Assembly (NCBI GenBank): GCA_964589215.1
Contig: CAZPUH010000492.1
Span: 10,221 to 74,220, forward strand
Source of the DNA: an uncultured Myxococcales bacterium
GTDB lineage: Bacteria; Myxococcota_A; Polyangia; Fen-1088
Length of the DNA: 64,000 nucleotides
Direction of reading: 5' to 3'
Translations under genes and position numbers: made by a program
The notes under the pieces: model-generated
What the model saw: only the letters and a program-made list of their open reading frames with translations
The model's database searches: none
What the model was told of the DNA's origin: nothing
Shown here: one piece after another, positions 10,945 to 32,441 of the stretch
How positions within the stretch are numbered: position 1 is the stretch's first letter
Layout: each line of letters begins with the position of its first letter

Positions 10945-11109
10945 GCGCTCCAGCCTACGCCGGGCGGCCCATGTACCTCAACACGACCCGTCCGAGCCAG
11001 CGCAGCGCGCGCCGCCAAGCCCGCGGCCGAACCGGTGGCGCCGCCTGCCCGGCGACCCATCGCTCCAGCGGCGTGGGCAGGGTCGGCGCCGTCGATGGGT
11101 AGATCGGGA

Positions 11110-11568: not shown

Positions 11569-11573
11569 CGCAG

Positions 11574-11864: not shown

Positions 11865-11867
11865 GGC

Positions 11868-12149: not shown

Positions 12150-12192
12150 GCCGACAAGGCTACGCCGGCCGACCCAGGCGGGGAAGCGCGAT

Positions 12193-17700: not shown

Positions 17701-18453
17701 CTACCGGCGGGTGAAGTTCCGGCGCAGCGGCACCCCGCCCCCCTTAGGTGACCACTTCGCCAGCGCATCGCGACTAAACCACCACGCCATCACGCCGTCG
17801 CTCGTGGCGAAGACGGGGTAGTTCTTCACCTCCTCCTTGAACCGGCACCAGTGGCACGGGCAGGTCGACTCGTGCCCCTCCCATTCGCCGCCCGGAAAGA
17901 TCCAGGCGCCGTTGTTCATTTCGACCTCGAGCACCGGCAGGCCGACGTCCGGATCCGCCTTGTTCGAACCGGTCGTGAAGGACTCGACCTTCGGCCAGTA
18001 GGGCAGGTCGGCCTCCTTCACCCAATCGACCAGCGCCTCCTGGTATCCGTTGTTCTCGACCTGAATCCACTGCGGACCCAGCTCCTGATCGACGATGCCG
18101 ATCTGGCGTGCGGTCTCGGGCGAGCTCCAGGCGCCGAACCGGACATCCAGCAGCCCGCGCCGGTTGTTCGCCATCAGCCCCACGGTGACGATCGCCACGC
18201 CGGGCCGGCGCTTGCCGGACAGGTCGACCCCCGTGTAACAGAGCGGCTTGCGGGCCCGGAGCTCGCCGGCCGTCAGGCCGTGCTGGATGCATTTCTCGAA
18301 GCTGGGGAACTTCAGGTCGCCCGGCGCGACCGCCTGCATCAGGTAGCCCTTTTGGAAGGTCGCCATGTCGATCATGGCGTCCTGGAGCTTCTGCTTTCCG
18401 TGCTTCAACTCCCAGATCGGAAGAGACGGCAGCCGGATCGAGTGGTTCGGCAC
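17701..18453 (-). CDS. terL: terminase large subunit, nuclease (C-terminal) half
   Basis: RNase-H-like terminase nuclease pattern: YTGVDLSGKRRPGVAIVTV, IQVENNGYQEALVDWV, FTTGSNKADPDVGLPVLEVEM, TSDGVMAWWFSRDA. There is no ATPase domain in this ORF. Confidence 0.7.
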   Translation of the reverse strand: MPNHSIRLPSLPIWELKHGKQKLQDAMIDMATFQKGYLMQAVAPGDLKFPSFEKCIQHGLTAGELRARKPLCYTGVDLSGKRRPGVAIVTVGLMANNRRGLLDVRFGAWSSPETARQIGIVDQELGPQWIQVENNGYQEALVDWVKEADLPYWPKVESFTTGSNKADPDVGLPVLEVEMNNGAWIFPGGEWEGHESTCPCHWCRFKEEVKNYPVFATSDGVMAWWFSRDALAKWSPKGGGVPLRRNFTRR

Positions 18454-18456
18454 CGG

Positions 18457-19956
18457 CTACCCCGTCGTGAACGCGGGCGGCATCGGTGCCAAGGAATCGG
18501 CCAGCGCAATCGGCGGCACCACCGCGCCCGCCACGCCCGCGGGGACCGCCAGCGGCGAGACCGGCAGCAGCAATGGCGGGACCCGCGCCTCCACGACGCC
18601 CCACGCCACGTTGCGCCACCACGCGGCAACGTAGGCATCCTTTCTGAGCCCGTAGTCGGGCATCCAGGCGTGCTCGGCAGCGTCCAGGGCGACGATTACA
18701 GGCGCGTTCGCCGGCGCCCCGCTGTCATCCCCCTCGAGGACCATGTTCCGCAGCCTGCCGCCCCGGCCATCGCGAACCGCGAGCACCCAGCTGGCGGCCG
18801 CGCGCGCCGCCTGGCGGAAGTCCGCCGCCCAGGCGTCGACCGACCCGAAGGCTTCGACCGCCGCGGCCGTGAACGCCGGGCCAGGTCCGGCGGCGCCCGC
18901 GCCGCGCGCCAGCCCCTCGAAGTAGAGTTCGTGCAGGACGACCGCGTTGTGGACGGCCGGCAGGCGCCGGCGGGCGGCATCCGCGGGGCTGGGCCCCGCC
19001 TCCCGGCCCAGGAATTCGCCCACGGTGAAGTCCAGCGCAGTGAACGGCACTCGGCGGCCCACCCGTTTGATCGGCGCGGGTCCGTAGGCCATCCCCTGGC
19101 CCACCAGCATGTCCTCAACCGCCAGGAGCTTGGCCAGCGCGGCGGGCCGGTCGGCGTAGGTCTCCCGCCACCGCGAGCCGGGGTCCAGCCAGCAGGCGAA
19201 CGTCTCCGCCCAGTCCTCGTCGGGGTGCTTCTGGCCGTAGTGCGCCAACGGCGCGCTGGCGTTCTGCGCGATGTAGGACACGTAGGCATCGCTGGCGGCC
19301 GGGTCGGGCGTGAAGTCGTCCTGGTAGGGCGCCGCGAAGTTCCCGAAGGTCTCCCCCCACTTGATCCGCTGGTACAGCAGGTAGGCGTAGCCCAGGGCGT
19401 GTCCGAGCTCGTGACGCAGGATGCGCAGGACGTCGTCGACCGAGTACCGCAGGAAGTTGTCGTTCACCAGCGCCCAAAGGGCGTCGCTCGCCAGGTACCA
19501 GGGCAGGTTGATCGAGACCGCCTGATCGGCCGTCCAGAAGTCGGAGTCGCCCACGTACCAGGACGGCCGCCAGGTGATGCCGCGATCCTGCAGCTCCCCC
19601 TCCACCTGGGCGATGGCTTCGGCCAGCTTTCCGGTCGGCTCGAGCAACGGCAGGTCCCGCACCGGGGTGACCAGCAGCTGGTGGGCTTCCGCCGCTGGCA
19701 GCCCGCCGGTTGACCGCGCGCTGGCGCCAGCCACCGCGTCGAGCTCGGCCATCTCAACGACGTAGCGCCGATAGAGCTCCAGATGGTCGGCTAGCACCCG
19801 GTCGGAGATCCCGACCAGACCGCCCGTCAGGAGCGCCGTGAAATCACGCGGCGCGGCCGGTGCCGGCGCCTGCTTTTCCTCGGCGGCCCAGCGGCGCGCC
19901 ATCGCGGGGTGTGTCGCCCACATCCATCTTCGTTGCTTGGCGCTCTGCCATGGCAT
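18457..19956 (-). CDS. zinc metallopeptidase-like (HELGH) domain fused to a Fe/Mn-SOD-like domain
   Basis: RHELGHALGY. C-terminal FGSVDAWAADF...ASWVLAV...LDAAEHAWMPDYGLRKDAYVAAWWRNVAWGVV parallels the SOD pattern FGS.D..F..GSGW.WL..D.WEHAYY..R..Y...W.vvNW. Confidence 0.6.
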   Translation of the reverse strand: MPWQSAKQRRWMWATHPAMARRWAAEEKQAPAPAAPRDFTALLTGGLVGISDRVLADHLELYRRYVVEMAELDAVAGASARSTGGLPAAEAHQLLVTPVRDLPLLEPTGKLAEAIAQVEGELQDRGITWRPSWYVGDSDFWTADQAVSINLPWYLASDALWALVNDNFLRYSVDDVLRILRHELGHALGYAYLLYQRIKWGETFGNFAAPYQDDFTPDPAASDAYVSYIAQNASAPLAHYGQKHPDEDWAETFACWLDPGSRWRETYADRPAALAKLLAVEDMLVGQGMAYGPAPIKRVGRRVPFTALDFTVGEFLGREAGPSPADAARRRLPAVHNAVVLHELYFEGLARGAGAAGPGPAFTAAAVEAFGSVDAWAADFRQAARAAASWVLAVRDGRGGRLRNMVLEGDDSGAPANAPVIVALDAAEHAWMPDYGLRKDAYVAAWWRNVAWGVVEARVPPLLLPVSPLAVPAGVAGAVVPPIALADSLAPMPPAFTTG

Positions 19957-19965
19957 GCGCCCCAG

Positions 19966-19976
19966 GATACTACCGT
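19966..19976 (-). promoter_or_regulatory. class I motif variant (ACGGTAGTATC)
   Basis: Two mismatches in the GC-rich extension. TAGTAT ends 10 nt before ATG 19956. Confidence 0.45.
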
Positions 19977-20194
19977 CGTGTCGCCCGCCGTTGAAGCCGG
20001 TCGCGCTGGCCGATGACCAGACACTCCGGACAGGTCACCATCGACAGCTCCACCGTCAACGGCGCGGCCGGAGACCAATCCGCACCGCACCGCGCCCGGA
20101 AGTTCGGCCCCAGCAGGTGCATCACGCGCGCTGGCCTGTGGTCCGGCTTTTCCCTGCGGCCGAACAGGCGCCGCGCCCAGCTGAACAAGCCCAT
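19970..20194 (-). CDS. hypothetical protein
   Basis: 74 aa. A class I motif lies 6 nt upstream. Confidence 0.5.
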   Translation of the reverse strand: MGLFSWARRLFGRREKPDHRPARVMHLLGPNFRARCGADWSPAAPLTVELSMVTCPECLVIGQRDRLQRRATRR

Positions 20195-20199
20195 GCCCA

Positions 20200-20210
20200 G
20201 ATACTACGCG
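20200..20210 (-). promoter_or_regulatory. class I promoter-like motif CGCGTAGTATC
   Basis: Exact 11-mer. TAGTAT ends 6 nt before ATG 20194. Confidence 0.6.
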
Positions 20211-20237
20211 CTCACAGGAGCGTCAGCTGCGGCGGCA

Positions 20238-20735
20238 TCACGACGACCTCGTGACCGCGGTCAAGCCGACGCTCCTCGAGCGGCGTCTGCCGCAGCAGAC
20301 GGATCCGCCCTTCGGTCCGCTCCCAGTCTGCCGGCCACAGCATCCACGCGTAATCGGCGCTGTCGCCGCCGGACGCTTCGATTGACGCAGGAACTCGAAC
20401 GCCCACGTGTACGGCGGGTTGCTCAGCACCACCGCGACGTCAGGATCGGGCGCGTCGGTGACGTGCAGGAAATTCTCGATCCGCGCGTTGGCGCCGCACA
20501 GCCTGACTAACTCCGACCGTTCCTCCTCCCGAATCTCGAACGCGCGCCACTCCGGTGGCCGGTTGCCGGGCGACGCGTCCACGGTACGGATGATCGCGCC
20601 ATTGCCCGCGGCCGGCTCGACCCACGGGCCATGACGCGTCGGTCGCCATGCCTCGAGCAGACGTCGCACGCACCAGCTGGGCGTCGTGTAGAAGTCCTCT
20701 GGCTCTCGCGGGCCACCGCGGCCGGCGGCGCTCAC
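20238..20735 (-). CDS. DNA methyltransferase (NPPY class), apparently frame-disrupted after motif IV
   Basis: DFYTTP, VEPAAGNGAI (motif I), LSNPPY (motif IV). After AFEFLRQS this frame becomes R/C/G-rich nonsense, while the -1 frame (track ORF 20212..20406) reads protein-like. GTGA overlap at 20735. Confidence 0.55.
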   Translation of the reverse strand: MSAAGRGGPREPEDFYTTPSWCVRRLLEAWRPTRHGPWVEPAAGNGAIIRTVDASPGNRPPEWRAFEIREEERSELVRLCGANARIENFLHVTDAPDPDVAVVLSNPPYTWAFEFLRQSKRPAATAPITRGCCGRQTGSGPKGGSVCCGRRRSRSVGLTAVTRSS

Positions 20736-21457
20736 GAGTTGGCGACCTCGATCAGGACGCGTGCGTGGCAGACATCCGGCTCTCCCGGCGCCGGCAACGG
20801 GCACCAGCAGGCAAGGCTCCGACCCCTGAGCTCGCGCCGCGCCTGCGCGACCAGGTCCGGCATCCCTTCGAGCAATGCCCGGAACGCCTCCACGGCCGCC
20901 TCGCGCGTCGGATACCGCTCACAGACCCGGAACGGGTTGCCCCAGCGTCCCGGCCGGCTGACCACAATCGTGCCTTCAGGCTTCCGCCAGCCCTTCGCGC
21001 GCGAGAGCTGGATGCGCTTCGGCGGCGGCAACTGTGGGATCTCGACGGTCGCCCACGCCAGCATCCGCTTCCAGTAGGCGCCGTTCAGCGCGGGCGGGTC
21101 GAGCACCTGCGACCGACCGATCCACTTGTACCAGCGCACGCGCACCGGCGGACCGCCGCCGAGCAACTGCGGCTTGATCTCGAACTGCCAGCCGGTCTCG
21201 TTGCCGTCGTCGTCGACGTTGCAGTGCGGACAGCCGCCGTCACTGTCGTAGCAGTAGACGTGCATTCGAAAGCGGTCATTCTCAAAGTCGACGCCGTAGC
21301 CGTACCTCCCGCCAAGCGCACCGCCGCCCAGCTCGCCCAGACCAGCGCGCGCGAGTCGTTCCGTCAGGTCGCGCAGGTCGCGGGCGACGACGCCTTCCAG
21401 ATCTTCGCCCAGATCATCCGCGGTTGGCGCCGTGATGATGCGCAGGTCGTCCGGCAT
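20732..21457 (-). CDS. DUF4326 domain protein with N-terminal extension
   Basis: SRPGRWGNPF...LRGRSLACWCP...CHARVL is the DUF4326 pattern. Confidence 0.7.
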   Translation of the reverse strand: MPDDLRIITAPTADDLGEDLEGVVARDLRDLTERLARAGLGELGGGALGGRYGYGVDFENDRFRMHVYCYDSDGGCPHCNVDDDGNETGWQFEIKPQLLGGGPPVRVRWYKWIGRSQVLDPPALNGAYWKRMLAWATVEIPQLPPPKRIQLSRAKGWRKPEGTIVVSRPGRWGNPFRVCERYPTREAAVEAFRALLEGMPDLVAQARRELRGRSLACWCPLPAPGEPDVCHARVLIEVANS

Positions 21458-21463
21458 TCCGGA

Positions 21464-21474
21464 GATACTACGCG
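21464..21474 (-). promoter_or_regulatory. class I promoter-like motif CGCGTAGTATC
   Basis: Exact 11-mer. TAGTAT ends 7 nt before ATG 21457. Its TAG is the stop codon of 21468..22223. Confidence 0.6.
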
Positions 21475-22223
21475 GCGAGCTTCGGGTACGGCAGGCTCTT
21501 CGGCAGACAGCGGCGCAAGCTGCGGTCGAGAGCCCAGGCGTATTTGAGGTTTCCCGGGTGGCGCACCGGTCGCGTCAGGCGGTCGATGTCGCCGAGTTCG
21601 CCAGTCCCCCCGTAGCCGCGCAGCAGGCGAGAGACGTACTCGTGCCCGCGCTGCCGGTGCACCAGCTTCTGAATCGCCCGCCTCGGCAACACGCGCCCGT
21701 CCGGCAGCAAGCGCACGATCTCAGCCTTGCTCCGGCCGAGATAGACGCCATTCGTGGCCTGGTACACCGTGCCGACGTGGCCCGGGTGCACGAGCTCGCC
21801 CACGGCTGTCAGACGCGGCATGGGGTCCGAGAACGACACGATCCCCGCGACCTCGCGCCGGAGTTCTTCGAAGCATCGCGCGATAAACCAGGACTCCCCG
21901 TTTGCCGGCACATCGTCGAGCAACACGAGCCGGCCGAGTTCGGTGGCCTCGGTCGCCTTGACCGGAAAGACCTTCGTCAGCGTGACGTCATTCACCGGAT
22001 GAGAGAACACCGCCACACCCACCAGCTGTCCCGCGCGATAGAGCCCGAACCGGAACCGCGCGGCCGGAAAGCTACCAGAGTAGTGATGCCGGATGACGAA
22101 CGCCTTGGGCGTGTCGTCGTCTTCGATGCGGCCCACCTCATAGCGCCGCGTTTCGATCGGCTCACCGGCCGGACGGTACGACCCGCGCCGATCGCGCCAG
22201 CGCTGATTTACCGGTGTAATCAC
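21468..22223 (-). CDS. GNAT-fold, Mom-like protein (putative base-modification enzyme)
   Basis: FVIRHHYSGSFP, LVGVAVFSHP, ELGRLVLLDDVPANGESWF, SFSDP...GHVGTVYQATNGVYLG. This recalls the Mom-family/GNAT pattern from memory and is not verified. GTGA overlap start at 22223. Confidence 0.45.
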   Translation of the reverse strand: MITPVNQRWRDRRGSYRPAGEPIETRRYEVGRIEDDDTPKAFVIRHHYSGSFPAARFRFGLYRAGQLVGVAVFSHPVNDVTLTKVFPVKATEATELGRLVLLDDVPANGESWFIARCFEELRREVAGIVSFSDPMPRLTAVGELVHPGHVGTVYQATNGVYLGRSKAEIVRLLPDGRVLPRRAIQKLVHRQRGHEYVSRLLRGYGGTGELGDIDRLTRPVRHPGNLKYAWALDRSLRRCLPKSLPYPKLAA

Positions 22224-22426
22224 GGCGGCGCGGCGGTCTCCGTACCGCACTCGCCGCAGATGAATACGATCCGGATCAGATCGAGCGCCATCGGCTTGCG
22301 GCAACGTGGACACGGGCGCGGCGCTGGCGCCTTCGGACGTCCAACCCAGCCGGAGGGCAGAACCGGCGGCACATCATCGAGCTCACGCAGCCCTTCGCAA
22401 TCGCTGCATTCTCCCGTCGCGCACAT
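22220..22426 (-). CDS. zinc-ribbon small protein
   Basis: CSDC...CPRC...CGEC Cys pairs. 68 aa. Confidence 0.55.
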   Translation of the reverse strand: MCATGECSDCEGLRELDDVPPVLPSGWVGRPKAPAPRPCPRCRKPMALDLIRIVFICGECGTETAAPP

Positions 22427-22710
22427 CAGATGTTCCTCCGGCGGTAGGCTGCGCGCGCGAAATCCTCGGGACAGACGGTTGCCGTGTAGTCGGTCGGGAT
22501 CGCTCGCAGCCAGGCATCAGCGAAGCTCTCGAACCGTTCCGGCGCTGATTGCTCCAGCTCCCCCGTCTCGGTCTTGAACCAGCGGAACACCAGAATGCGG
22601 CCGGTCAGCAGGTCATCGTGGATGGTGATCAGCTCCGGCAGGATCGGCAGCGCTCCGGGCGTGACGTAGCCGGGGAAGCGGGAGACCAGGACGCGGGCGA
22701 TGGCGGTCAT
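22426..22710 (-). CDS. hypothetical protein
   Basis: 94 aa, MTAIARVLVSRFPGYV... ATGA overlap. Confidence 0.55.
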   Translation of the reverse strand: MTAIARVLVSRFPGYVTPGALPILPELITIHDDLLTGRILVFRWFKTETGELEQSAPERFESFADAWLRAIPTDYTATVCPEDFARAAYRRRNI

Positions 22711-22937
22711 CGCGGACCCCCGGAGTCCTGATCTGTCGTCTTCGGGATGGCTGTCGGAAGACGATCGGCGAGTTCCTGAAGCACGTGATACGCGCAGCGC
22801 GGCTGCTGCGGACACGGTTCATAGAGAGGTCGCCTACACATGCCTGATGCGACTCCAAATGCGCGCAGGACGAAACCTGCGGCTACGCTGGCCTCCCGCA
22901 ATAATTCGGCGTCGGCGCCGCTCGTTTCAGAATCCAT
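22707..22937 (-). CDS. hypothetical protein
   Basis: 76 aa from ATG 22937. Confidence 0.45.
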   Translation of the reverse strand: MDSETSGADAELLREASVAAGFVLRAFGVASGMCRRPLYEPCPQQPRCAYHVLQELADRLPTAIPKTTDQDSGGPR

Positions 22938-23097
22938 GGGCCGCCTTTTCCGCGCCGTCCGGCGTTCCCGCATTCCGAGCGACTCGGCGGCTTCCGTTCA
23001 CGCAGGCCGCGCACAGCTGACCGACGTCGGGCCCTACGATGACCACGCGCCCGGTGACGCCGCACGCGGTGCAGAATCCGCTGTTCGTCGTCTTCAT
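22927..23097 (-). CDS. zinc-ribbon small protein
   Basis: 56 aa, MKTTNSGFCTACGVTGR...CAAC. ATGA overlap. Confidence 0.5.
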   Translation of the reverse strand: MKTTNSGFCTACGVTGRVVIVGPDVGQLCAACVNGSRRVARNAGTPDGAEKAAHGF

Positions 23098-23384
23098 CGG
23101 GCGCCTCCATCCGGAGATCGCCACAGGATCGTGTTGGTACCGGAGAACACGAACGCCCTTTCGCCCAACCTGACGACCAGGTAACCCCGCAAGAAGCCAT
23201 CGCCGCGCGACGCATTCTCGATTCGCGTCGCCTGCCCGGCGGCCACGCGATGGTCCGTGTACGTCTTGTCGTGCAGCCAGGTCCGCCCCTTGCCGTCCAT
23301 GATGACGATCGCGAATTCGCGCTCTGCGGCGACCTTGGTCAGCCCAAGCGTCGCGATATCCCCGAGCCAATTCTCAGAAGCCAT
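23094..23384 (-). CDS. hypothetical protein
   Basis: 96 aa, MASENWLGDIATLGLTK... GAGGAG SD. Confidence 0.55.
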   Translation of the reverse strand: MASENWLGDIATLGLTKVAAEREFAIVIMDGKGRTWLHDKTYTDHRVAAGQATRIENASRGDGFLRGYLVVRLGERAFVFSGTNTILWRSPDGGAR

Positions 23385-23658
23385 GGGCGTTCTTCTCCTC
23401 AATGGCGGGCGCCGCGTCCGGCCCCGCGTCCGCCGCCGTGACAACCGGCGCCGCGTCGTCGTCGTCCGCCGAGCCGGCGATCTCGAAGCTGGGCGGCGGG
23501 GTCGTCTCGTGCACCGGCGCCGTCCAGATCGACGACCCAGCGCTGAGCGTTCCGACCGTCTCGACTGGCACCGGTGCATGCGCCGCACAGCCGGCCAGCC
23601 CCAGAAAGATTCCGAGCGCCAGCGCGAGCCGCATCACTCCGTGTTCCTGCCGGTTCAC
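23374..23658 (-). CDS. lipoprotein
   Basis: MRLALALGIFLGLAGC lipobox. Start is GTG 23658 (GTGA overlap) or ATG 23634. Confidence 0.6.
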   Translation of the reverse strand: MNRQEHGVMRLALALGIFLGLAGCAAHAPVPVETVGTLSAGSSIWTAPVHETTPPPSFEIAGSADDDDAAPVVTAADAGPDAAPAIEEKNAHGF

Positions 23659-24020
23659 AGCGCACCGTCCTGCTGTCGCTGCGCGCGATACTTCCGCATG
23701 AGCTCCTCGCCGGTCTCATGCTCGATCGGCGTCGTCTCCTCTTCGTCCGTCGCGACCGGAACGGCTTCGACCTCGGCGATCGGTGTACGTGCGCGGACGG
23801 CCGACAGCACCAGATCCCATGTCTCTTTACTCGGGGCGTTAACCTTCGCCTTCTTCGCAAAGATCGCTCGCTCCGGCACCGATAACGCGGCAAGAAACTC
23901 CGCGATGATCCGGTTTTGCTCGCTGGTCTCGCCGGTCGGAACGACCGACAAAATGGCCAGCACCTTGCGGCTGCGGGCCGCCTCTTCGTGCGGATTGCGT
24001 TTGCTGTTCGTCATCATCAT
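23655..24020 (-). CDS. hypothetical protein (candidate early gene)
   Basis: 121 aa, MMMTNSKRNPHEE... ATG lies 6 nt after the class III -10. Confidence 0.65.
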   Translation of the reverse strand: MMMTNSKRNPHEEAARSRKVLAILSVVPTGETSEQNRIIAEFLAALSVPERAIFAKKAKVNAPSKETWDLVLSAVRARTPIAEVEAVPVATDEEETTPIEHETGEELMRKYRAQRQQDGAL

Positions 24021-24026
24021 GAGACG

Positions 24027-24055
24027 AGCTTAGCGCCGTCCGTAAGTGTTGTAAA
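24027..24055 (-). promoter_or_regulatory. class III sigma70-like promoter TTTACA-N17-TAAGCT, leaderless
   Basis: The -10 ends 6 nt before ATG 24020. Shares a 19-nt block with the other two copies. Confidence 0.65.
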
Positions 24056-24074
24056 TGTTTTTTCGGGCGGCCGG

Positions 24075-24281
24075 TCAGGAAAGCTGGTTCCTTGCGATTT
24101 CTCGCTGCTTTCCAGCGACAGACGCCTGACACTTGCTGCAATTGGGACTGACATTGAATACGTGCTGACCGAGTTCGTGCGCGTCCTCGGCGATAGCTTC
24201 CGCGATCCGTCGTTCGAGCGCCACACGGTCTTCCTCCGCGCGGATCCGCTTGTCCATGCTGCGGCGCCAGCGGCGACTCAC
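24075..24281 (-). CDS. hypothetical protein
   Basis: 68 aa. GTGA overlap. Confidence 0.5.
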   Translation of the reverse strand: MSRRWRRSMDKRIRAEEDRVALERRIAEAIAEDAHELGQHVFNVSPNCSKCQASVAGKQREIARNQLS

Positions 24282-24454
24282 TCGTCCGGCTCCGGTTCAG
24301 ACGGCGCGATCTCGGCACTGCCGTACACGCGCGCGCCGTCCGGAGCCTGATGAAGAACGACCGTCACAGGCACCCCGTGTTTGGGGATCACGATGTCGTG
24401 CGCGTGCTGGACATCGTCGGCCGCGAAGTGAACGAAGAACCTCGGCGCGCTCAT
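24278..24454 (-). CDS. hypothetical small protein
   Basis: Own translation, 58 aa: MSAPRFFVHFAADDVQHAHDIVIPKHGVPVTVVLHQ... ATGA overlap. Below the track cutoff. Confidence 0.45.
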   Translation of the reverse strand: MSAPRFFVHFAADDVQHAHDIVIPKHGVPVTVVLHQAPDGARVYGSAEIAPSEPEPDE

Positions 24455-24978
24455 GTATGCGCGGCCTCCTGCTGTTCGCCCGCGTGCAGATCAGACCACG
24501 ACTTCCACCCGGCGGCCGTGAAGTCGCGCGAGTACACCTCGCTGCGCGGGAGCAGCGGCGTCTTGAAATCTGGCGCCGTAAAGACGCGGTAGTGCCACAC
24601 GTCGAAACGCTTTCCGTCCGGAGAGAACGGAGGCTCTGCCCAAATGAGCCGAGTCATTCCGTCGAAGAAGATCTCACACCAACGTTTCGCTTTAGCGTGG
24701 TCGTGCGGCGCCGACTGCATCGTCTCCCTGTCGAAGAACGACAGCGACAGATGAAGGCACTGATTGTAGTCGGGGTTTTTCCACCATCCCATCGCATGCA
24801 TGCCGGCGTCGCGCGTGTAGAGCAGCGTGCATCCGAACGCTGGCTCGACGCGGCGGCACCGATCGATGTACCTCGCCATGCGCCGGTCGCGATGGGCCAT
24901 CCCGTCGTAATAACCGTACTGCGCCACCCGTCGCATGTCGGAGGCAATCTCCTCCATCGTCTGGACGGGTCCGCTCAT
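24451..24978 (-). CDS. hypothetical protein
   Basis: 175-aa track ORF. ATGA overlap. Confidence 0.6.
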   Translation of the reverse strand: MSGPVQTMEEIASDMRRVAQYGYYDGMAHRDRRMARYIDRCRRVEPAFGCTLLYTRDAGMHAMGWWKNPDYNQCLHLSLSFFDRETMQSAPHDHAKAKRWCEIFFDGMTRLIWAEPPFSPDGKRFDVWHYRVFTAPDFKTPLLPRSEVYSRDFTAAGWKSWSDLHAGEQQEAAHT

Positions 24979-25247
24979 GTTCCACTGTACGGGCCCGCGA
25001 CCCGTCCCTTTCGCTCGGCGAAGAACTGCAGGATCTTCTCCGCTCGGTCAGCTGCGCGTCGTTCCGGATCTGCCTGCGCGATTTTCAGGATGCCGAGCAC
25101 CGCGTGGAACAGCGCCTCGCCCAGATTCTCCGGCGACGGCTCGGTCAGCAGCGCGGACGCGCGCGCGAAGCTGTGCTGGGCGGTTTCTAGCGCGTGCCGG
25201 AGTCGCTCGCCTGCTCGCCTGGTGTCGGCCGCCTTCGTTCCGTTCAC
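24975..25247 (-). CDS. hypothetical protein
   Basis: 90 aa. GTGA overlap with the Gp37/Gp68 stop. Confidence 0.5.
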   Translation of the reverse strand: MNGTKAADTRRAGERLRHALETAQHSFARASALLTEPSPENLGEALFHAVLGILKIAQADPERRAADRAEKILQFFAERKGRVAGPYSGT

Positions 25248-26386
25248 GGCGTCCTCGGCGTCGGAAACTCGCGCACGCGGAGTCCGCGAGGCCACTCGCG
25301 CAGATCGCCACCGTGACTGTCCATGAGTCTGATGCGCACCGGCGCACCCTGATGCTCCTCGCGAAAGCCGTTGATGTTCTCGTCGATCTGGTACATCTGT
25401 CCGTCCGGGCGTTCCGGTGGCCAGCCGTTCTCCTCGCCGTCCTCGAAGGCGCACGGCGCCAGCCGCCCGTCGTTCGGCACGACCACGTTGGCGCCCATCT
25501 GCTTCACGAACACCGCCACGCCGGCCGCCTTGCACTGCGCGACCAGCAGCTCCGCCCACGCTGGCTCGAAGCGGCGCGCGCGCTGACCGCTCTCGCCGCC
25601 CACGACCACCCAGTCGAGTTCGGGAGCGAAGCCCGAGCGAATCCACTTCGGGTTACCGCGCTCGCGGTCAATCTCAAGCCAGCTTCGCAGGTCCAGCTTG
25701 CCCAGCAGAGGTTCGGCGCTCACCCAGCGCACTGCCGCCGGCGTCGCCAGCAGGGCGGGGATGCGATCGTTTGCGGTCTCCTGGTTCTCGGCGGAGACGC
25801 CTAGGTGCACGTTCGGGAGCGGCCACTCCGGCGGATCCTCGATGAGAGGGTCCCCTCTTCCGGGCTCGAACCCGTCCTTGCTGTCGTGCTTCGTCAGGAA
25901 GGCGTTGACCTCGGGAACGCCGAACATCTCGGTTACGCAGGCGTGAATGCCGTCTCCGACCATGTCCACGCGCGACGCCCACTCGAACCACTTCCGCATC
26001 CGCTCCGCCCGCTTCGTCAGGATCTGATGCGTGTGCTGCTGCGTCGCCGCCATCACTCCGAAGCAGGCCGCGATCCATTCGTTCGACACCCAGTCGCCGA
26101 ACAGGTCCGTCATGTCGCACCAGAAGATTTTCGCTGGCCGCTTGCGTGCGAGCACTGACACCAGCTTCTTCGGATTCAGCGATAGGACAGGCATGTGCTC
26201 GCCTCGCTGCTCCTGGAACTGCGGCAGCCCGAAGCGAGGTTGCATGCGCGACGCGTAGCAGTTCTTGCAGCCGGGCGAGATCTTCTCGCAGTAGTGCCCC
26301 GATCGCGCAGCGCCCGGCGCGCTCGCGGGTCTCGCCTCGATGGGGTTGACGGTGAAATTGGTCCACTCGATGAGGGTGCGATTCAT
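25244..26386 (-). CDS. phage Gp37/Gp68 family protein
   Basis: MNRTLIEWTNFTVNP...CEKISPGCKNCYA is the family N-terminal signature. 380 aa. Confidence 0.75.
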   Translation of the reverse strand: MNRTLIEWTNFTVNPIEARPASAPGAARSGHYCEKISPGCKNCYASRMQPRFGLPQFQEQRGEHMPVLSLNPKKLVSVLARKRPAKIFWCDMTDLFGDWVSNEWIAACFGVMAATQQHTHQILTKRAERMRKWFEWASRVDMVGDGIHACVTEMFGVPEVNAFLTKHDSKDGFEPGRGDPLIEDPPEWPLPNVHLGVSAENQETANDRIPALLATPAAVRWVSAEPLLGKLDLRSWLEIDRERGNPKWIRSGFAPELDWVVVGGESGQRARRFEPAWAELLVAQCKAAGVAVFVKQMGANVVVPNDGRLAPCAFEDGEENGWPPERPDGQMYQIDENINGFREEHQGAPVRIRLMDSHGGDLREWPRGLRVREFPTPRTP

Positions 26387-26617
26387 TCAGGCTGGCCTCA
26401 GGTCAAGGAACGGGCATTCCGGTCCGCACGGTGTTGGATCTCCGGCCGAGGTGAACACCAGTCCGGTCTCGTCGCAGGTCTCGCAGCCCTCAGGCTGCAG
26501 ATTCAGGCACTCCGGGCAAAGATCGACCTCCAGCCCATGTCGCTCGTGCGCGTGCGAAAGCCGCGCGAGCTGCTGCGCCTCCGTTCCGATCCCCAGTCGG
26601 TCACCGCTCGTTTTCAC
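26387..26617 (-). CDS. Cys-rich small protein
   Basis: 76 aa with CPEC and CETC pairs. GTGA overlap. Confidence 0.5.
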   Translation of the reverse strand: MKTSGDRLGIGTEAQQLARLSHAHERHGLEVDLCPECLNLQPEGCETCDETGLVFTSAGDPTPCGPECPFLDLRPA

Positions 26618-26898
26618 GGCCCAATCGCTCCCTCCGCCCGCTGCCGCTGCGCGGGTCCAAACTGCGCTTCGATCGCCGCCAGCACCTGCTCGACATCGCC
26701 AAACGGCGCCCCCCAGGTCGTGCCCAGCCGCGGCACCTCGACCACCACCTGGCCGGTCTCCTCGACCACGCCCCAGGTCGACTGGTTGATCGGCCAGCCG
26801 GACCGGATCGCCAGCCAGCAGGCGTAGGCGCGCTGGACACGGTCCATCCGCGCGTGACCGGCGCGTCGCTGTTCGTCTGGCGGATTCAGATCGAGCAT
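26614..26898 (-). CDS. hypothetical protein
   Basis: 94 aa from ATG 26898 (MLDLNPPDEQ...). Confidence 0.5.
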   Translation of the reverse strand: MLDLNPPDEQRRAGHARMDRVQRAYACWLAIRSGWPINQSTWGVVEETGQVVVEVPRLGTTWGAPFGDVEQVLAAIEAQFGPAQRQRAEGAIGP

Positions 26899-27089
26899 CA
26901 ACGCCTGACCTTTTTGCACCGCTTGCAGGTGGCGCATCGCGGATCGAGCGTCCAGAGCAGCCCCCGCCGGCCGCCCGCCAAGCGCTTGGTCCAGTCGCCG
27001 ATCGGGCGCGCGCGGCGCTCGTGCCGGATGTAGTCCCGGCAGATGGTGCAGCCGCGTGGGCTGTGCTTCGTGGCGCCGGCGGGAATCAT
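26898..27089 (-). CDS. zinc-ribbon small protein
   Basis: MIPAGATKHSPRGCTICRD...CATCKRC. A class I motif lies upstream. Confidence 0.5.
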   Translation of the reverse strand: MIPAGATKHSPRGCTICRDYIRHERRARPIGDWTKRLAGGRRGLLWTLDPRCATCKRCKKVRR

Positions 27090-27100
27090 TTGACCCACCG

Positions 27101-27111
27101 GATACTACGCG
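27101..27111 (-). promoter_or_regulatory. class I promoter-like motif CGCGTAGTATC
   Basis: Exact 11-mer. ATG 27089 is 12 nt downstream (GTG 27098 is 3 nt downstream). Confidence 0.55.
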
Positions 27112-27129
27112 CGCTGGCGCGCGGCGCGC

Positions 27130-27381
27130 TCAGGTCCGGATCGGTTCGAGCCGCAGCCGAGCCACCGCGATTTCGTTCGTGGGCTTCACGTGCTGGATCG
27201 GCACCAGCGTCACCCGTCCGACCGGCACGTCCTCGTCCCCCGCCGTCACCTCGAGCTCGACCAGCTTGGGCTCGCCCAACACCTTCGTCGGGTAGCCCAG
27301 CATGATCGCCTGCACCGTAACGTCCCGCCCGCGGTGCTGGACGGTGGCGCGGACCTCAGCTCTCCGGTCGATCAGCGTCAT
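27130..27381 (-). CDS. hypothetical protein
   Basis: 83 aa, MTLIDRRAEVRATVQH... ATGA overlap. Confidence 0.5.
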   Translation of the reverse strand: MTLIDRRAEVRATVQHRGRDVTVQAIMLGYPTKVLGEPKLVELEVTAGDEDVPVGRVTLVPIQHVKPTNEIAVARLRLEPIRT

Positions 27382-27491
27382 CGCCCGTGCGATGCCGGAT
27401 GCGCGCCGCCCGCGTGCGCCAGGCCGATGACCGTCAGGCCGGCGAACGCCAGTGCGCCGGCCAGGATGATGGCGGACCAGACGCGCGACAT
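27378..27491 (-). CDS. small single-pass membrane peptide
   Basis: 37 aa, MSRVWSAIILAGALAFAGLTVIGLAHAGG... 1-nt TGATG junction. Confidence 0.45.
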   Translation of the reverse strand: MSRVWSAIILAGALAFAGLTVIGLAHAGGAHPASHGR

Positions 27492-27784
27492 CAGCGGCAC
27501 GCGTCGATCGCCGCGCAGCTGGATGCGGCGCTGCGGCAGCCAAGATCCCAGGTGGCGATCCCGGTGCCCTGCACGTTGGAGCACACCTCTTCGCATGACG
27601 CGCCCTGCGGCGTCGGCTGCGCGAAGGGGCAGCCGAGACGGCGCCCGTTCTGGCAGACGGCGGCGCAGGTGCCGGGCGCGGCGGCGGCATCGCTCGCATC
27701 TGGCGTCACCGGCGGGGGCGCGGGCGGGCAGCCGGGGCAGCTGGCCAGCACGAGGAATGCCAGCAAACCGATCGCGCGGATCAC
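27491..27784 (-). CDS. Pro/Cys-rich lipoprotein
   Basis: VIRAIGLLAFLVLASCPGCPPAPPPV lipobox. GTGA overlap with the peptidase stop. Confidence 0.6.
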   Translation of the reverse strand: MIRAIGLLAFLVLASCPGCPPAPPPVTPDASDAAAAPGTCAAVCQNGRRLGCPFAQPTPQGASCEEVCSNVQGTGIATWDLGCRSAASSCAAIDACR

Positions 27785-28647
27785 GGCGTCACCCCCTGGT
27801 AGTCGGCGAACCACAGATCGTTGGTCGACTCGTCCATCAGGTACTTCGGTGTCATCCAGAACATCCCCCGGTCGCCCCAGCCCTCGGACCAGGAATTGAC
27901 GACCCTGAATTTCACGCCGCCCACCACACCCGGGTCGAAGACGGCGCGGACGATCCGCATGCAGTGCCCCCCGTCGATGTCACCCGGATCGGGCGCGTCG
28001 ACCAGGAACCCCGGCGGGAGCCGGTTCGACGCGAAGGCGTTGGTGACGTTCGTTCCGAAGACGACCGGGCAGGGCTTTCCGCCTTTGCCTGCGGCCGAGA
28101 GGGCGCGCAGCACATCGTCTACCCGCCTCGTTCCCGTGCTCATGATCCGCCCGTAGTCGATTGGCGCGCGCTGGTCGTACGCCAACCGAAAGACGTCCGC
28201 CGGCGGCTTGCTCATCGCCGGGCTCGGGTTCGCGTCGGTGTATGGCAGCGCGCTCTCGGGAGGCAGTCCAAGGCGCTCCAACACCTCCGCCCCATCGCCG
28301 ACGTAGGCCCCTTCAAACCGGCTGATGTCGCCCTCGATGGCATGCATCAGGTACATCAGCCAGAGCCGCGACCCGAGCGTCGGGGACGGGTTCCCGTTGC
28401 GCTGAACGCAGTCACGGACCGCGCCGGCCCAGCCGTGGGATACGCAGTAGGGCGCTCCGCCCTGGTCGAGGATCCCGGCGGCCCGGATCGCGTCTTCATC
28501 GAGGCCGCAGTCGGTCGTCGGCACGGGGATGCCGGCCAGCGTCGTCGCCGCGTCCCGTCGCGGCGGCACGCCGAGAAGATGCCGCAGGTCGGGCTTGTAG
28601 CCGTGGCCCGCCTCGGGATGGCCGCGCTTCTGAAAGTCCTCGACCAT
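27781..28647 (-). CDS. papain-like (C1 family) cysteine peptidase
   Basis: QGGAPYC (Q-x5-C as in papain Q19/C25), DGGHCMRIV (His), VVNSWSEGWGDRGMFWM (NSWG..WG..G). Confidence 0.65.
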   Translation of the reverse strand: MVEDFQKRGHPEAGHGYKPDLRHLLGVPPRRDAATTLAGIPVPTTDCGLDEDAIRAAGILDQGGAPYCVSHGWAGAVRDCVQRNGNPSPTLGSRLWLMYLMHAIEGDISRFEGAYVGDGAEVLERLGLPPESALPYTDANPSPAMSKPPADVFRLAYDQRAPIDYGRIMSTGTRRVDDVLRALSAAGKGGKPCPVVFGTNVTNAFASNRLPPGFLVDAPDPGDIDGGHCMRIVRAVFDPGVVGGVKFRVVNSWSEGWGDRGMFWMTPKYLMDESTNDLWFADYQGVTP

Positions 28648-28649
28648 GA

Positions 28650-29186
28650 TCAGGTGCTCTTCTTCATGCCGAAGCTGAACACCCAGTGCAGCTCGCTCGG
28701 CAGTGACGAGACGCCAATGAACTCCTCGGCGCCGAACCCGACGCTCACCCAGTCGATGATCGTCAGGATCGGCAGCGCCTCGATCGCGAAGTATTTCGCG
28801 CCAGGGACGGAGCTCGAATTGTCTATCAGGCTCGCCTGGACGAAGACGTCGAAGGCGATCACGGCGTTGGTCATCGTCCAGCCCGCGGGCTTGTACTTCA
28901 GCCCATAGCCGATGCCCGGCACGATCCCCGTCACGTACTGGCGGCTCTTCAGGTCGATCTGGAAGACGTCGAAGCCGACGGACGGACCGAGCCAGAGGTC
29001 TCCCGTTGCACCGACCTTGACGTCCCCCGTTGCCCCGTCTGTCGGCAGCGGCTGGACGGGCTCCGCGTGCGGTCCGCTCAGGTAGGTGCGGCCAAATTCA
29101 GCGCGCGCCGGCGGCGCGCCACACAAGATCAATAGGGCCGCAATGGCCGGGAGCAAAAGGCGGGCGGCGTTCTTCATGCCGTCCAT
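28650..29186 (-). CDS. secreted beta-rich protein (possible outer-membrane protein)
   Basis: Signal peptide MKNAARLLLPAIAALLILCGAPPARA/EF, then alternating aromatic/Gly beta-like segments. Confidence 0.55.
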   Translation of the reverse strand: MDGMKNAARLLLPAIAALLILCGAPPARAEFGRTYLSGPHAEPVQPLPTDGATGDVKVGATGDLWLGPSVGFDVFQIDLKSRQYVTGIVPGIGYGLKYKPAGWTMTNAVIAFDVFVQASLIDNSSSVPGAKYFAIEALPILTIIDWVSVGFGAEEFIGVSSLPSELHWVFSFGMKKST

Positions 29187-29222
29187 CGTGCTCCCGGCCA
29201 GGATCGGGTGTCAACGCGTGGT

Positions 29223-29636
29223 TCAGTTCGGCTCTTCCTCGTCGTCGCCCTTGGGGCCCCGCTCCAAACCGGTGACGGGCATGAACTCCTGCAGCTCCTC
29301 GGCCGTCATCGCGCGCTCCTCGACCACCTCGTCGTTATCGTCGCGCCGGACCAGCACCTTCTTGTTTGCGAAGTGGAACTCATTGACCACGTACATGGTC
29401 CGGTTCTCCTTCTCCTCCTCGCAGTCGATCCGAAGCTGGGCGTTCTCCGCCTTCAGCGTCTTCACCTTGTCCTTGAGGGGGCGCATGTCCTCCTCGAGAT
29501 TCACGATCTTGGTGAGGTTCTTTCGGATCTGTGTCTGCTTTTCGGCGACCTCCTCCGGCGTGATGTCGACCTGAATCTCTTTCTTAAACCGCTTGCTTCG
29601 CTCGACGTCTCCGCTGCTGCTGCTCTTCTTCCCCAT
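29223..29636 (-). CDS. hypothetical coiled-coil protein
   Basis: 137 aa, K/E-rich, in a locally lower-GC region. Confidence 0.6.
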   Translation of the reverse strand: MGKKSSSSGDVERSKRFKKEIQVDITPEEVAEKQTQIRKNLTKIVNLEEDMRPLKDKVKTLKAENAQLRIDCEEEKENRTMYVVNEFHFANKKVLVRRDDNDEVVEERAMTAEELQEFMPVTGLERGPKGDDEEEPN

Positions 29637-29639
29637 CGG

Positions 29640-29999
29640 TCAGTTTCCCTTTCCGCTCTTTTTCTCGAGCTTGTCCCTCACCATCTCGCCGTACTTTGCG
29701 GCGAGCATCTTGCCGAGTTCGCGGCCGGCCGCCACGAGCTCGCGCCGATCGTCGGTGATCGGCAAGTCCTCGACGATGGCCACGATCGCCCCGTAGTGCA
29801 TGAAGACGGTCGCAACGTCGCCCGGGATCAGGCCGGCCTCTTCGATCCGGTCCTCGATCGCCTTGTTCGTGGTCAGGGTCTCGGTGACCACCTTCGAAAC
29901 CAGGGCCTCGACCATCTTGGGTTGCATGCCCCGGATGCCGCGGCACACCTTCTTGACGTCTTCCATTGCCTTCTCGACGTCTTCGGGGCTGAAGTTCAT
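29640..29999 (-). CDS. hypothetical protein
   Basis: 119 aa from ATG 29999 (MNFSPEDVEKAM...). The class I motif ends 7 nt upstream. Confidence 0.6.
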   Translation of the reverse strand: MNFSPEDVEKAMEDVKKVCRGIRGMQPKMVEALVSKVVTETLTTNKAIEDRIEEAGLIPGDVATVFMHYGAIVAIVEDLPITDDRRELVAAGRELGKMLAAKYGEMVRDKLEKKSGKGN

Positions 30000-30005
30000 C
30001 CCCGG

Positions 30006-30016
30006 GATACTACGCG
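30006..30016 (-). promoter_or_regulatory. class I promoter-like motif CGCGTAGTATC
   Basis: Exact 11-mer. TAGTAT ends 7 nt before ATG 29999. Confidence 0.6.
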
Positions 30017-30029
30017 GCAACGGACGATT

Positions 30030-32036
30030 TCAGACCGGAGAACCGACCGGATAGTCTTCGAGCTCGGTCCCAAAGACCTCCTGGTCGTAAAAATCCAGGC
30101 TCGGCATCTGAATTCGCTGGATCAGGGTCAACCAACGGCGATCATTCTTGATGTCGTTCGAGTAGTCGTCGGATGACCATGCCGTGGCGAACGCCAGCGC
30201 ACGGGCCTCGGGGCCATCGAGCCGCGACATCCAGGTGCCGGTCGCCATCTTCTTGATCTTCGCCCGGACGGCTGCCTCTTCGCTGTTCTTCTGAGTGCAG
30301 ACGTCGTCCATGAACAGATAGTCCGCCTTTGACCCGATGCCCTCGGTCAGCACCCCGCGCGCCTGGATCGTCGGATCGGTGCCGTGCCCCTGGCGCTCGA
30401 CGAAGGCGTCTTGGGTGTCCCACTTTTGGCCGCGCCGGATGTGAGGGAACACCCGGCGGTATTCGTAGCTCTCGATCAGGCTCTTGATGGACGCCACGCG
30501 CAGCTTGGCCATGTCGTCGTTCGCGCAGACGACTTTGATGCGGACCTGTGGGTTCCGGCCCACGAGATAGGCGGCCAGCGGCACCAGAAAGCCGGTGTTG
30601 TGCACGATCACGTCGCTGGTCAGATACGTGTGATGCCCGTCGACTTCCATCCCAAAGGTCGGTTGGACCCCCATGTCACGGATGGTGACGATTTCGTCCC
30701 AGAAGATCTCAGGAGCCGTCAGCTTCAAGAGATAGGCGTTGCCCTCTGCTTCCGCCGCCAAGCGGACAACGCCGCGCGCCGTGCCCATCTGACGGTGGTT
30801 TTTCGTTTTGGCCTGATCGAGCGATACGCCCGTGTTGACCTTGTGCCAATGCGCCGTCCGCTTCAGGTATTTGCGGTACCCCAGCGGGATGATGTCGTTG
30901 TTCGTCAGGCGTCCGGTAGTTCGCGGCCCGAAGGTGGCCAGCTTCTGTCCCTTTTCTCCAGGCACGGGAACACGTTCGCGGAACAGGTCGAGCCACGGCC
31001 GACGTACTCGAAGTCGCCACGACGCGTGATGTCGCCCCAGGTACTTTCCGTTCTTCGGGAAAACGACGGAAACAATGCCCAGCCGCAACAGCAGCGACTG
31101 GACATCATCGAGGAGACCACGATTCACCGAATAGAGTTCGACGTTCCCCTTTGCGTCCACGTGCCCATCGCAGGCCACGTACGCGCCGATGTATCTGGCG
31201 ATCTGGTCAACGGGGGCAGAGAAGATTTTCGGGGGCGTTACCTTCGTCCAGGCGGTGCAGTGTTCGTGGGCTTGTTGCTCCATGAACCAGCTCCTGCATC
31301 CGCCGAGAACTCTCACGCCAGGCGTTCTCGGAGGATAGTTGAAGCGGGTGCTTCTGAAGCCTGCTCTCTCTGCCGCCGCTGCAATCGCATCGAGGAGATG
31401 GGGATCGCCATTCGCGACTTCGATTCCGGTTTGCTTTACCGATCCATCTCCGACGATGAATCCGAACAACTCCGGCTCGCCATCTCGTAGGCGATGCGTC
31501 CCCATATTCGGCAGGTTGTTGGCTACCGCGACGCTTCTTCCAATGGCGAGATCGGCTGCCTTCACCCAGCCGTTCACCGTCAGGAATGGATGCTCTTCCG
31601 TGACGTCTATCTCGCGCCCGCTGCGCAGCCCGATGCGGATGACCCGTCTATCTCCGTTGCCGAATACGCGCGCCCAGGCCGGCGCAAATCGGCCGGTCTC
31701 AGCGTCATAGGCGACGACGCTGACCATCAGCCCACATAGGTTGCCGATCGCGGCCGTCGTTCCGTCAGAAAGTTGGACCTTCGAGTGCGCGGGCTGGCAT
31801 TTACCGGAACTGAACGGCGCCATGATCATCGCGTGCTTTCCGCGGTTCCAGGCGTGGTTGACGTGCACGATCCAGGCGCGGTGCAGGTAGTGCAGTTCGA
31901 CGGGCCCACCGTCCTCGTCCTTGGCGCAAAACTCGATGAAGGCAGCGAGATTCACCCGCGCCTTCCGGATCTGTTCTTGGACCAGGCGCTTGGCGACGAT
32001 CAGGTCTTCGATGTTCGCGACGGCGGTAGTGGCCAT
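30030..32036 (-). CDS. terL: terminase large subunit, ATPase (N-terminal) half, interrupted by an intein
   Basis: From ATG 32036. Extein: Walker A MAPFSSGK|T (split by the intein), Walker B ADYLFMDDV, then ATAWSS. Extein total is 267 aa with no nuclease domain. Confidence 0.75.
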   Translation of the reverse strand: MATTAVANIEDLIVAKRLVQEQIRKARVNLAAFIEFCAKDEDGGPVELHYLHRAWIVHVNHAWNRGKHAMIMAPFSSGKCQPAHSKVQLSDGTTAAIGNLCGLMVSVVAYDAETGRFAPAWARVFGNGDRRVIRIGLRSGREIDVTEEHPFLTVNGWVKAADLAIGRSVAVANNLPNMGTHRLRDGEPELFGFIVGDGSVKQTGIEVANGDPHLLDAIAAAAERAGFRSTRFNYPPRTPGVRVLGGCRSWFMEQQAHEHCTAWTKVTPPKIFSAPVDQIARYIGAYVACDGHVDAKGNVELYSVNRGLLDDVQSLLLRLGIVSVVFPKNGKYLGRHHASWRLRVRRPWLDLFRERVPVPGEKGQKLATFGPRTTGRLTNNDIIPLGYRKYLKRTAHWHKVNTGVSLDQAKTKNHRQMGTARGVVRLAAEAEGNAYLLKLTAPEIFWDEIVTIRDMGVQPTFGMEVDGHHTYLTSDVIVHNTGFLVPLAAYLVGRNPQVRIKVVCANDDMAKLRVASIKSLIESYEYRRVFPHIRRGQKWDTQDAFVERQGHGTDPTIQARGVLTEGIGSKADYLFMDDVCTQKNSEEAAVRAKIKKMATGTWMSRLDGPEARALAFATAWSSDDYSNDIKNDRRWLTLIQRIQMPSLDFYDQEVFGTELEDYPVGSPV
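30597..31799 (-). mobile_element. intein with LAGLIDADG homing endonuclease in the TerL P-loop
   Basis: 401 aa. Starts at Cys (codon 31799..31797) right after GK and ends HN, followed by Thr (30596..30594). Block B is VTEEHPF. LAGLIDADG motifs are LFGFIVGDGSV and IGAYVACDGHV. C-terminal end is SDVIVHN. Confidence 0.8.
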
Positions 32037-32075: not shown

Positions 32076-32441
32076 ATGACGTATGTGACCCTGACGCCGA
32101 AGACCAACCGGATCACGGTCCGCACGACGCTCCGCCCCAGCGCCGCCTACGCCCACCGCGACTTCGCCGTCAGCATCCAACCGGTGCACGCCGGCCTGAC
32201 GTTCACCGTGTGGGGTCGGACCGAGCCTGGACGGGCGAAGTTCAGGCCATGCACCGAGCTCGGCGACGACTTCCTCAGCCGGGTCGAGGAGGTCGTGGTT
32301 GGCGCGGGACTGGATGAACTATCCAAGCTGGCGCTCGGTCGGACCCAGGACGACGCCACCGTGAAGCGGATCATTGACGTGGTCCGCGATCTGCTCGAGT
32401 GCACGGCGGCGCCCGAGCAGAAGCTGGCGGACGCCGCCTAG
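32076..32441 (+). CDS. hypothetical protein (plus strand)
   Basis: 121 aa with very high GC3. Divergent from TerL across a 39-bp gap. Confidence 0.65.
   Translation: MTYVTLTPKTNRITVRTTLRPSAAYAHRDFAVSIQPVHAGLTFTVWGRTEPGRAKFRPCTELGDDFLSRVEEVVVGAGLDELSKLALGRTQDDATVKRIIDVVRDLLECTAAPEQKLADAA

Follow-up and report, generated by a model that had tools for sequence, protein, structure and literature searches.

The 64,000-nucleotide stretch of contig CAZPUH010000492.1 presented above (the window) is part of a metagenome-assembled tailed-phage genome of about 88 kb, and its genes suggest that the large terminase subunit (TerL) of this phage is probably made of two separately encoded polypeptides, an ATPase and a linker/nuclease protein. 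Two intact, conserved and co-inherited genes together make exactly one TerL, and each half is the orthologue of one domain of the fused TerLs of the same family. TerL is a hallmark gene of tailed phages, used as a universal marker for phylogeny and detection and described as an ATPase–nuclease fusion. The TerL-associated nuclease domain has been called 'a universal feature across Caudovirales' (PMC7824862). What is new here is a TerL orthologue that fails the single-polypeptide feature; a full-text literature search found no account of a TerL split at the level of its domains and not rejoined.

The ATPase half was identified by profile and structure searches. The preliminary description of the window, made from the letters alone, had read its gene as an ATPase-only extein of 267 amino acids (aa) with Walker A and B motifs, and the searches bore this out. 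The extein aligned to positions 327–479 of 760 of phrog_38, 'terminase large subunit' (E 3e-19), its other PHROG matches being phrog_4758 and phrog_17672, and in the PDB a profile of the ATPase-half family matched T7 gp19 and the terminase of PhiV-1 (E ~3e-12). With an AlphaFold2 (AF2) model of mean predicted local distance difference test score (pLDDT) 83, the best Foldseek matches in the PDB were the TerL ATPase domains of PhiV-1, T4, HK97, T7 and P74-26, and the N-terminal domain of phi29 gp16 was also found. The Walker A, Walker B and TAW motifs are invariant in the family, with K79, D176 and D177 among the invariant residues. The C-extein, which starts with Thr, runs through Walker B, 'TAW' and the last beta-hairpin of the ATPase domain and ends in a short variable tail. 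The 267-aa extein is a TerL ATPase domain, nothing more.

The P-loop of this half is interrupted by an intein with Pfam matches to LAGLIDADG_3 (E 3e-17) and Intein_splicing (E 1e-11). The features of a TerL with a P-loop intein were all found: Cys1, TxxH (a TEEH block B), a terminal HN, a +1 nucleophile (Thr) and a Walker A motif restored on excision. The intein is missing from all 20 ATPase-half homologues found, and in intein-less homologues Walker A reads APF(N/S)SGKTS without interruption; since these are continuous across the site, splicing would restore the motif here.

The nuclease half was identified in the same way. Its gene had been taken to encode only the RNase-H-like nuclease domain, and a comparison with terminase hidden Markov models (HMMs), which the preliminary description had proposed as a check, agreed: the 250-aa protein aligned to positions 486–697 of 760 of phrog_38 (E 2e-7). 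The two phrog_38 matches are thus complementary, that of the nuclease half resuming directly where that of the ATPase half ends. The protein had no Pfam match and no sequence-level match in the PDB. Its AF2 model (pLDDT 79) gave 15 best PDB matches that were all nuclease domains of TerL, pUL15 or pUL89, including those of G20c, SPP1, HK97, herpes simplex virus (HSV) pUL15, T4 gp17, PhiV-1, human cytomegalovirus (HCMV) pUL89 and P22; RuvC-type and Ydc2 resolvases ranked below them. Three acidic residues are invariant, D77 (GVDL), E133 (VENN) and D219 (SDGVM), and in the model they lie, respectively, where beta1 ends, just behind beta4 and where the C-terminal helix begins; these would be the catalytic positions of an RNase-H fold. 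A cluster of H194, C200 and C203 is also conserved. A further stand-alone nuclease half, P0061 (544 aa), carries an intein of its own at the helix of the third catalytic Asp ('DHVMA/C...GN/CWFAREG', slashes marking the intein ends); inteins invade both halves independently.

Comparison with fused TerLs located the break between the two halves. The halves lie 11,576 bp apart and sum to 517 aa (267 + 250), against 504–536 aa in fused relatives, in keeping with the earlier estimates of 11.6 kb and of a normal TerL size. Fused relatives, P0067, P0072, P0085 and P0092 among them, align colinearly with the two halves, first the ATPase and then the nuclease, and one fused relative spans the break with '...CTLIQRVSEDFTHIVCEVVNSPDPSY' before it and 'QNFTVPLSKRYQTE...' directly after it. 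The break is in the interdomain linker, as had been proposed, immediately behind the beta-hairpin that closes the ATPase domain; the nuclease half keeps the linker, with no loss and no duplication. Another part of the proposal failed. A similarity between RIQMPSLDFYDQE at the end of the ATPase half and SIRLPSLPIWELK at the start of the nuclease half had been read as a footprint of fission or duplication, but in fused homologues these match consecutive, differing segments ('QRVSEDFTHIVCEV' then 'FTVPLSKRY'). The 'PSL' that they share is peculiar to this phage, the family consensus being 'PDLEHYEQEV' for the one and 'LPxIPxW' for the other, and the underlying DNA is unrelated. A duplication or att-like footprint was therefore rejected, and the resemblance put down to chance.

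Stand-alone halves are the rule among close relatives. None of the 55 cluster representatives that are close homologues of one half or the other is fused. In a collection of 5.8 billion proteins, all 35 homologues of the nuclease half were 208–263 aa long, with identity down to 35%. All 20 homologues of the ATPase extein were short and ATPase-only, with identity down to 44%; 18 of them were 262–306 aa long and the other two (179 and 240 aa) look truncated. Alignments with sequences down to 33–42% identity held 21 invariant columns for the nuclease half and 47 for the ATPase half. When 1.84 billion cluster representatives were searched with a nuclease-half profile, 2,227 relatives were found. 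Among the best 150 of these, 62 were complete stand-alone proteins (~240–310 aa), 64 were fused, with the domain starting at residue 225 at least and lengths typically of 500–560 aa (longer with inteins), and 24 were truncated or hard to classify. The split clade described below may account for some of the 62, and perhaps for many. Identity between the nuclease half and fused TerLs of its family is 36–38%. In a search for cultured relatives, three stand-alone nuclease halves compared by tblastn with 50,697 phage records gave no match, and a fused relative is only ~23% identical to Streptomyces phage terminases.

Both halves were found on one contig in four divergent genomes, with constant orientation and order and with parallel divergence of the halves. 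The gap between them is 11.6 kb in this phage, 15.4 kb in an 87.7-kb relative (60% / 56% identity), 15.8 kb in a 59.6-kb contig and 15.7 kb in a 92.8-kb contig. HMMs of both halves were also run over 80 IMG/VR loci. Relatives below ~38% identity were mostly fused, so that the synteny comparison suggested in the preliminary description came out with all close relatives split and fused TerLs only among more distant ones. Some loci have split but adjacent genes, which in L029 are in different frames with a 4-nt GTGA stop/start overlap, and other splits measure 0.5, 1.5, 5.3 and 8.0 kb; in many loci the ~10 kb upstream of the nuclease gene do not contain the ATPase gene. Spacing in the split clade thus ranges from a 4-nt overlap to ~16 kb. 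In L038, an 81.9-kb contig, the order is nuclease half, helix-turn-helix (HTH) protein, ATPase half (9977–12425), the reverse of the fused domain order, and therefore no read-through of any kind could give an N-to-C fused product there. Catalytic residues are kept in both halves across the deep clade, in which identity has fallen to ~35–45%, while spacing and order change.

In a neighbour-joining (NJ) tree of nuclease domains all far-separated forms fell into one clade of which every member is split, with the adjacent (L028, L029) and reversed (L038) forms nested within it; a few isolated splits occurred among fused lineages. Across the clade a block of HExxH/superoxide dismutase (SOD)-like gene, nuclease gene, ParB-like gene and portal gene is stable, the nuclease half lying 3–7 kb upstream of the portal gene in nearly all loci, and the ATPase gene stands at varying distances from this block. 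With every spacing up to ~16 kb and one reversed order among relatives, the two genes behave as independent units that move relative to each other. The comparison suggests an ancient fission, after which the ATPase gene probably relocated as an independent unit. A single large insertion into an ancestral terL, the other history offered in the preliminary description, is too simple for spacings that run from overlap to 16 kb and for a reversed order.

The alternatives that keep a conventional terminase in this phage are that the halves are rejoined or that they are remnants of a dead gene. Previously described interrupted terL genes are all restored to one polypeptide: those with inteins in phiCbK and Mic1 (PMC7156551), those with group I introns of demonstrated splicing in Jug phages (PMC12880540), those with split inteins in 'fractured genes' (PMC2677866) and the recoded terL of Streptomyces phage phiHau3 (PMC10732093). 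In all of these the pieces are adjacent, and RNA splicing, protein splicing or the ribosome makes one chain of them. The coding sequence here is likewise in pieces, and the intein in Walker A is a known kind of insertion, but no splicing element accompanies the break at the domain boundary, and the pieces are separated by many genes. A further example of rejoining is herpesvirus UL15, which has two exons several kilobases apart with unrelated genes between them and gives one protein by mRNA splicing; its break is off the domain boundary, whereas the genes here have separate start and stop codons and no intron. Each route by which the present halves might be joined was considered. For a split intein, the ATPase half has only ~20 residues, all in a variable tail, beyond its last strand, and the nuclease half has ~10 ahead of its conserved start, with no Pfam intein match in the latter, against reported split-intein fragments of 88–105 aa (N) and 33–54 aa (C) (PMC2677866). 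Trans-splicing group I or II introns were rejected as well: a scan of the entire 64-kb window at the Rfam gathering score matched no family (no tRNA scan was made), and both genes abut neighbours 9 nt and 3 nt away, so that intron halves would not fit. As to a DNA rearrangement that would excise the block between the halves, no direct or inverted repeat above chance was found at the junctions: the longest word in common was 11 nt in direct and 9 nt in inverted orientation, whereas the 95th percentile for random window pairs was 13 nt. Frameshifting or ribosomal bypassing is impossible across 11.6 kb, and the reversed order in L038, with another gene between, excludes it there. Rejoining by any of these routes is very improbable. 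Least probable of all is that the assembly is at fault, or that the halves are pseudogene remnants of a terL no longer in use and a working TerL is encoded elsewhere. The source is a metagenome assembly, and ~6 kb of the ~88-kb genome lies outside our screen; nevertheless the arrangement recurs in independent assemblies and in divergent relatives, and the local gene order around the nuclease gene in assemblies from four sequencing runs, which speaks against the misassembly considered earlier. Both open reading frames (ORFs) are intact, and their invariant columns include the catalytic residues. The full-length TerL that was looked for elsewhere did not appear: neither half's HMM found a second locus in the window or in the other loci scanned, and a PHROG scan of ORFs of at least 350 aa over ~82 of 88 kb (~93%; the window plus flanks of 8.8 and 9.1 kb from other assemblies of the same phage, with the portal and a 1,611-aa tail-fibre-like protein unscanned) found no other TerL, while matching major head, head-morphogenesis, tape-measure, baseplate-wedge, DnaB and exonuclease proteins among others.

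A different possibility is that only the ATPase half packages DNA, that the nuclease has been repurposed, for instance as a junction resolvase or for degradation of host DNA, and that another nuclease, such as an HNH protein, cuts the concatemers. We consider this unlikely. RuvC and Ydc2 resolvases do occur among the fold matches of the nuclease half, though below the TerL nucleases; what it matches best, in sequence as in fold, are without exception TerL nuclease domains, and the identity to fused TerLs given above is to the same family. The independent position of its gene, no longer tied to the ATPase gene, would suit a new role, as would an HNH endonuclease gene in the head-gene region just outside the window. 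Against this, the protein keeps the TerL linker segment, its gene holds its place in the head module near the portal gene in nearly all loci, and it is retained wherever the ATPase half is found on the same contig. The two-polypeptide TerL is thus the reading we favour, as one of the two alternatives put forward in the preliminary description: the halves are orthologous and co-inherited, their catalytic motifs are kept, and neither a rejoining route nor another TerL was found.

Several points weigh against a two-polypeptide TerL. It is predicted here from sequences, structure models and gene order; the screen for another TerL stops short of ~6 kb, or 7% of the genome, that lies between head genes and tape-measure gene; the NJ tree was made quickly from distances and carries no support values; and the small terminase (see below) is a weak, motif-level candidate. 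In addition, the domains of T4 gp17 expressed apart reportedly kept ATPase and nuclease activity but did not package DNA when mixed (Kanamaru et al. 2004). If so, a covalent link between the domains can matter, and the natural split form probably has a compensating interface.

In the mechanism that we propose, the 267-aa ATPase would be matured by protein splicing of the P-loop intein and would form the ring that translocates DNA at the portal. Bound to the ATPase non-covalently, or acting in trans, the nuclease subunit would cut concatemers both when packaging begins and when it ends. The arrangement would go back to an ancient fission; since then the ATPase gene, in many cases together with an HTH gene just upstream (a possible small terminase), would have moved relative to the module of peptidase-like, nuclease, ParB-like and portal genes. 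The same two catalytic modules make up canonical TerLs (Terminase_6N plus Terminase_6C; T7 gp19/PhiV-1, T4 gp17, HK97, P74-26/G20c and SPP1 G2P), namely an additional-strand, conserved-glutamate (ASCE) P-loop ATPase together with an RNase-H-like nuclease whose acidic triad is D-E-D, and the fused TerLs of the family have the same domain order and total size as the two halves. Unlike canonical TerLs, the domains here are on two polypeptides with their own starts and stops, far apart in the genome. The phi29 packaging ATPase gp16 is, like the ATPase half, small and without an active nuclease of its own; phi29 packages unit-length protein-primed genomes with no need of cutting, and gp16 has a vestigial nuclease-fold C-domain in the same chain. 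In contrast to phi29, an apparently active nuclease is predicted to be kept here as a separate protein. Relatives' assemblies (~87.7–87.9 kb) begin at differing points, consistent with circularly permuted or terminally redundant DNA, that is, with DNA that needs cutting.

It may well be, on balance, that a large uncultured clade of tailed phages of ~55–93 kb packages DNA with separate ATPase and nuclease proteins from independently mobile genes. If so, a covalent tether between motor and nuclease would be unnecessary for translocation and for headful or end cutting, and the nuclease would be recruited in trans, possibly as a portal-binding adaptor. Models of TerL disagree on which domain binds the portal and on whether interdomain motion drives translocation; the clade would provide a natural system to test these competing models of domain cooperation, and a natural experiment on the motor's dependence on a nuclease domain in cis. 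Fission would then be possible even for an essential enzyme of two domains, with its genes later separating by as much as 16 kb or exchanging places. Marker pipelines that expect a TerL of at least ~400 aa will miss or mis-score such phages. A bearing on escape from defence systems that recognize TerL (Avs-type sensors) is possible, as a speculation.

Table 1. Features of the window (positions in the 64,000-nucleotide stretch; a dot pair separates first and last position).
Feature	Position	Strand	Remarks
Portal protein (SPP1_portal, Pfam)	9223..10944	(-)	6.8 kb downstream of nuclease half; anchors head module
TerL nuclease-half gene, 250 aa	17701..18453	(-)	Linker region and RNase-H-like nuclease; GTG start
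HExxH (HELGH) metallopeptidase-like + Sod_Fe_C protein	18457..19902	(-)	Sod_Fe_C E 3.5e-15
TerL ATPase-half gene	30030..32036	(-)	668-aa precursor, own stop codon; predicted spliced product 267 aa
C-extein, 188 aa + stop	30030..30596	(-)	Walker B 'YLFMDD', 'TAW' coupling motif
Intein, 401 aa, LAGLIDADG homing-endonuclease domain	30597..31799	(-)	Between K and T of Walker A
N-extein, 79 aa	31800..32036	(-)	Ends in Walker A 'APFSSGK'
Endolysin-like gene	32995..32438		Just before ATPase gene in minus-strand order
Small terminase candidate, 182 aa	35349..35897	(-)	3.3 kb upstream of ATPase gene; weak, tentative
DnaB	42866..41445		Replication genes
Exonuclease	48640..47480		Replication genes
Tail and baseplate genes	64-53 kb		First in minus-strand order

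The window has a G+C content of ~67%, and almost all its genes are on the minus strand (Table 1). The same proteins are encoded in independent assemblies of 87,962, 87,871 and 79,802 bp. In minus-strand order, tail and baseplate genes are followed by replication genes, the endolysin-like gene, the ATPase gene, ~22 small genes, the nuclease gene, ParB-like and ATP-binding cassette (ABC)-like genes and the portal gene, after which come a MuF-like head-morphogenesis gene and, just past the window start, the major head protein. The ATPase half is therefore 21 kb upstream of the portal gene, and the nuclease half lies inside the head module. A scan of positions 15–33.5 kb for promoters and terminators gave nothing exceeding shuffled expectation and no sigma-70-like promoter consensus. 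A scan of GTDB genomes for the host was uninformative, with matches in only four contigs of metagenome-assembled genomes from unrelated phyla.

Next to the nuclease half, the HExxH/Sod_Fe_C gene is found directly upstream in 20 split-clade loci (39–60% identity). In this phage the GTG start of the nuclease half is 3–4 nt past the stop of that gene, and the two appear to be translationally coupled. Immediately downstream of the nuclease half (15496–17261, minus strand) are two genes, one for a 204-aa ParB-like protein and the other for a 383-aa protein resembling ABC-type ATPases (phrog_11143, E 5e-101); a ParB-like gene near the nuclease half is conserved in 19 loci. In the assembly L008 of the same phage, a 213-aa HNH endonuclease gene (16312–16953) lies in the head module, ~4–5 kb past the window start; its product may be either a homing endonuclease or an HNH protein associated with packaging.

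The 182-aa small terminase candidate had no match in a PHROG search. Its tentative assignment comes from a C-terminal motif, L[ST]xxEL.Y...GKLPPG.T.E, that it has in common with HTH proteins encoded directly upstream of the ATPase gene in L038 (10849–11619), L029 (2477–3040) and L095 (756–1457). Adjoining the DnaB helicase gene is a gene for a 528-aa P-loop protein (39622–41208, minus strand) with a Walker A motif 'GQSQLAGKTT' and a Walker-B-like 'VIPEAWEF'. This protein looks HerA/FtsK-like by eye and had no Pfam or PDB sequence match. It was considered as a TerL and rejected, given a weak match to phrog_2666 (E 9e-4) with no significant stretch and the HerA/FtsK-like character of its P-loop motifs.

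The genes between the two halves number about 22, not the ~40 first reported, although their earlier description as peptidase, modification and lipoprotein genes was roughly right: they include genes for the HExxH peptidase-like protein, a Mom-like protein, a methyltransferase and a lipobox protein. At 20238–22223 and 25244–26386, both on the minus strand, are Mom-like, DUF4326, methyltransferase-like (a fragment) and DUF5131 (Gp37/Gp68-type) genes, which look like a cluster for DNA modification and anti-restriction.

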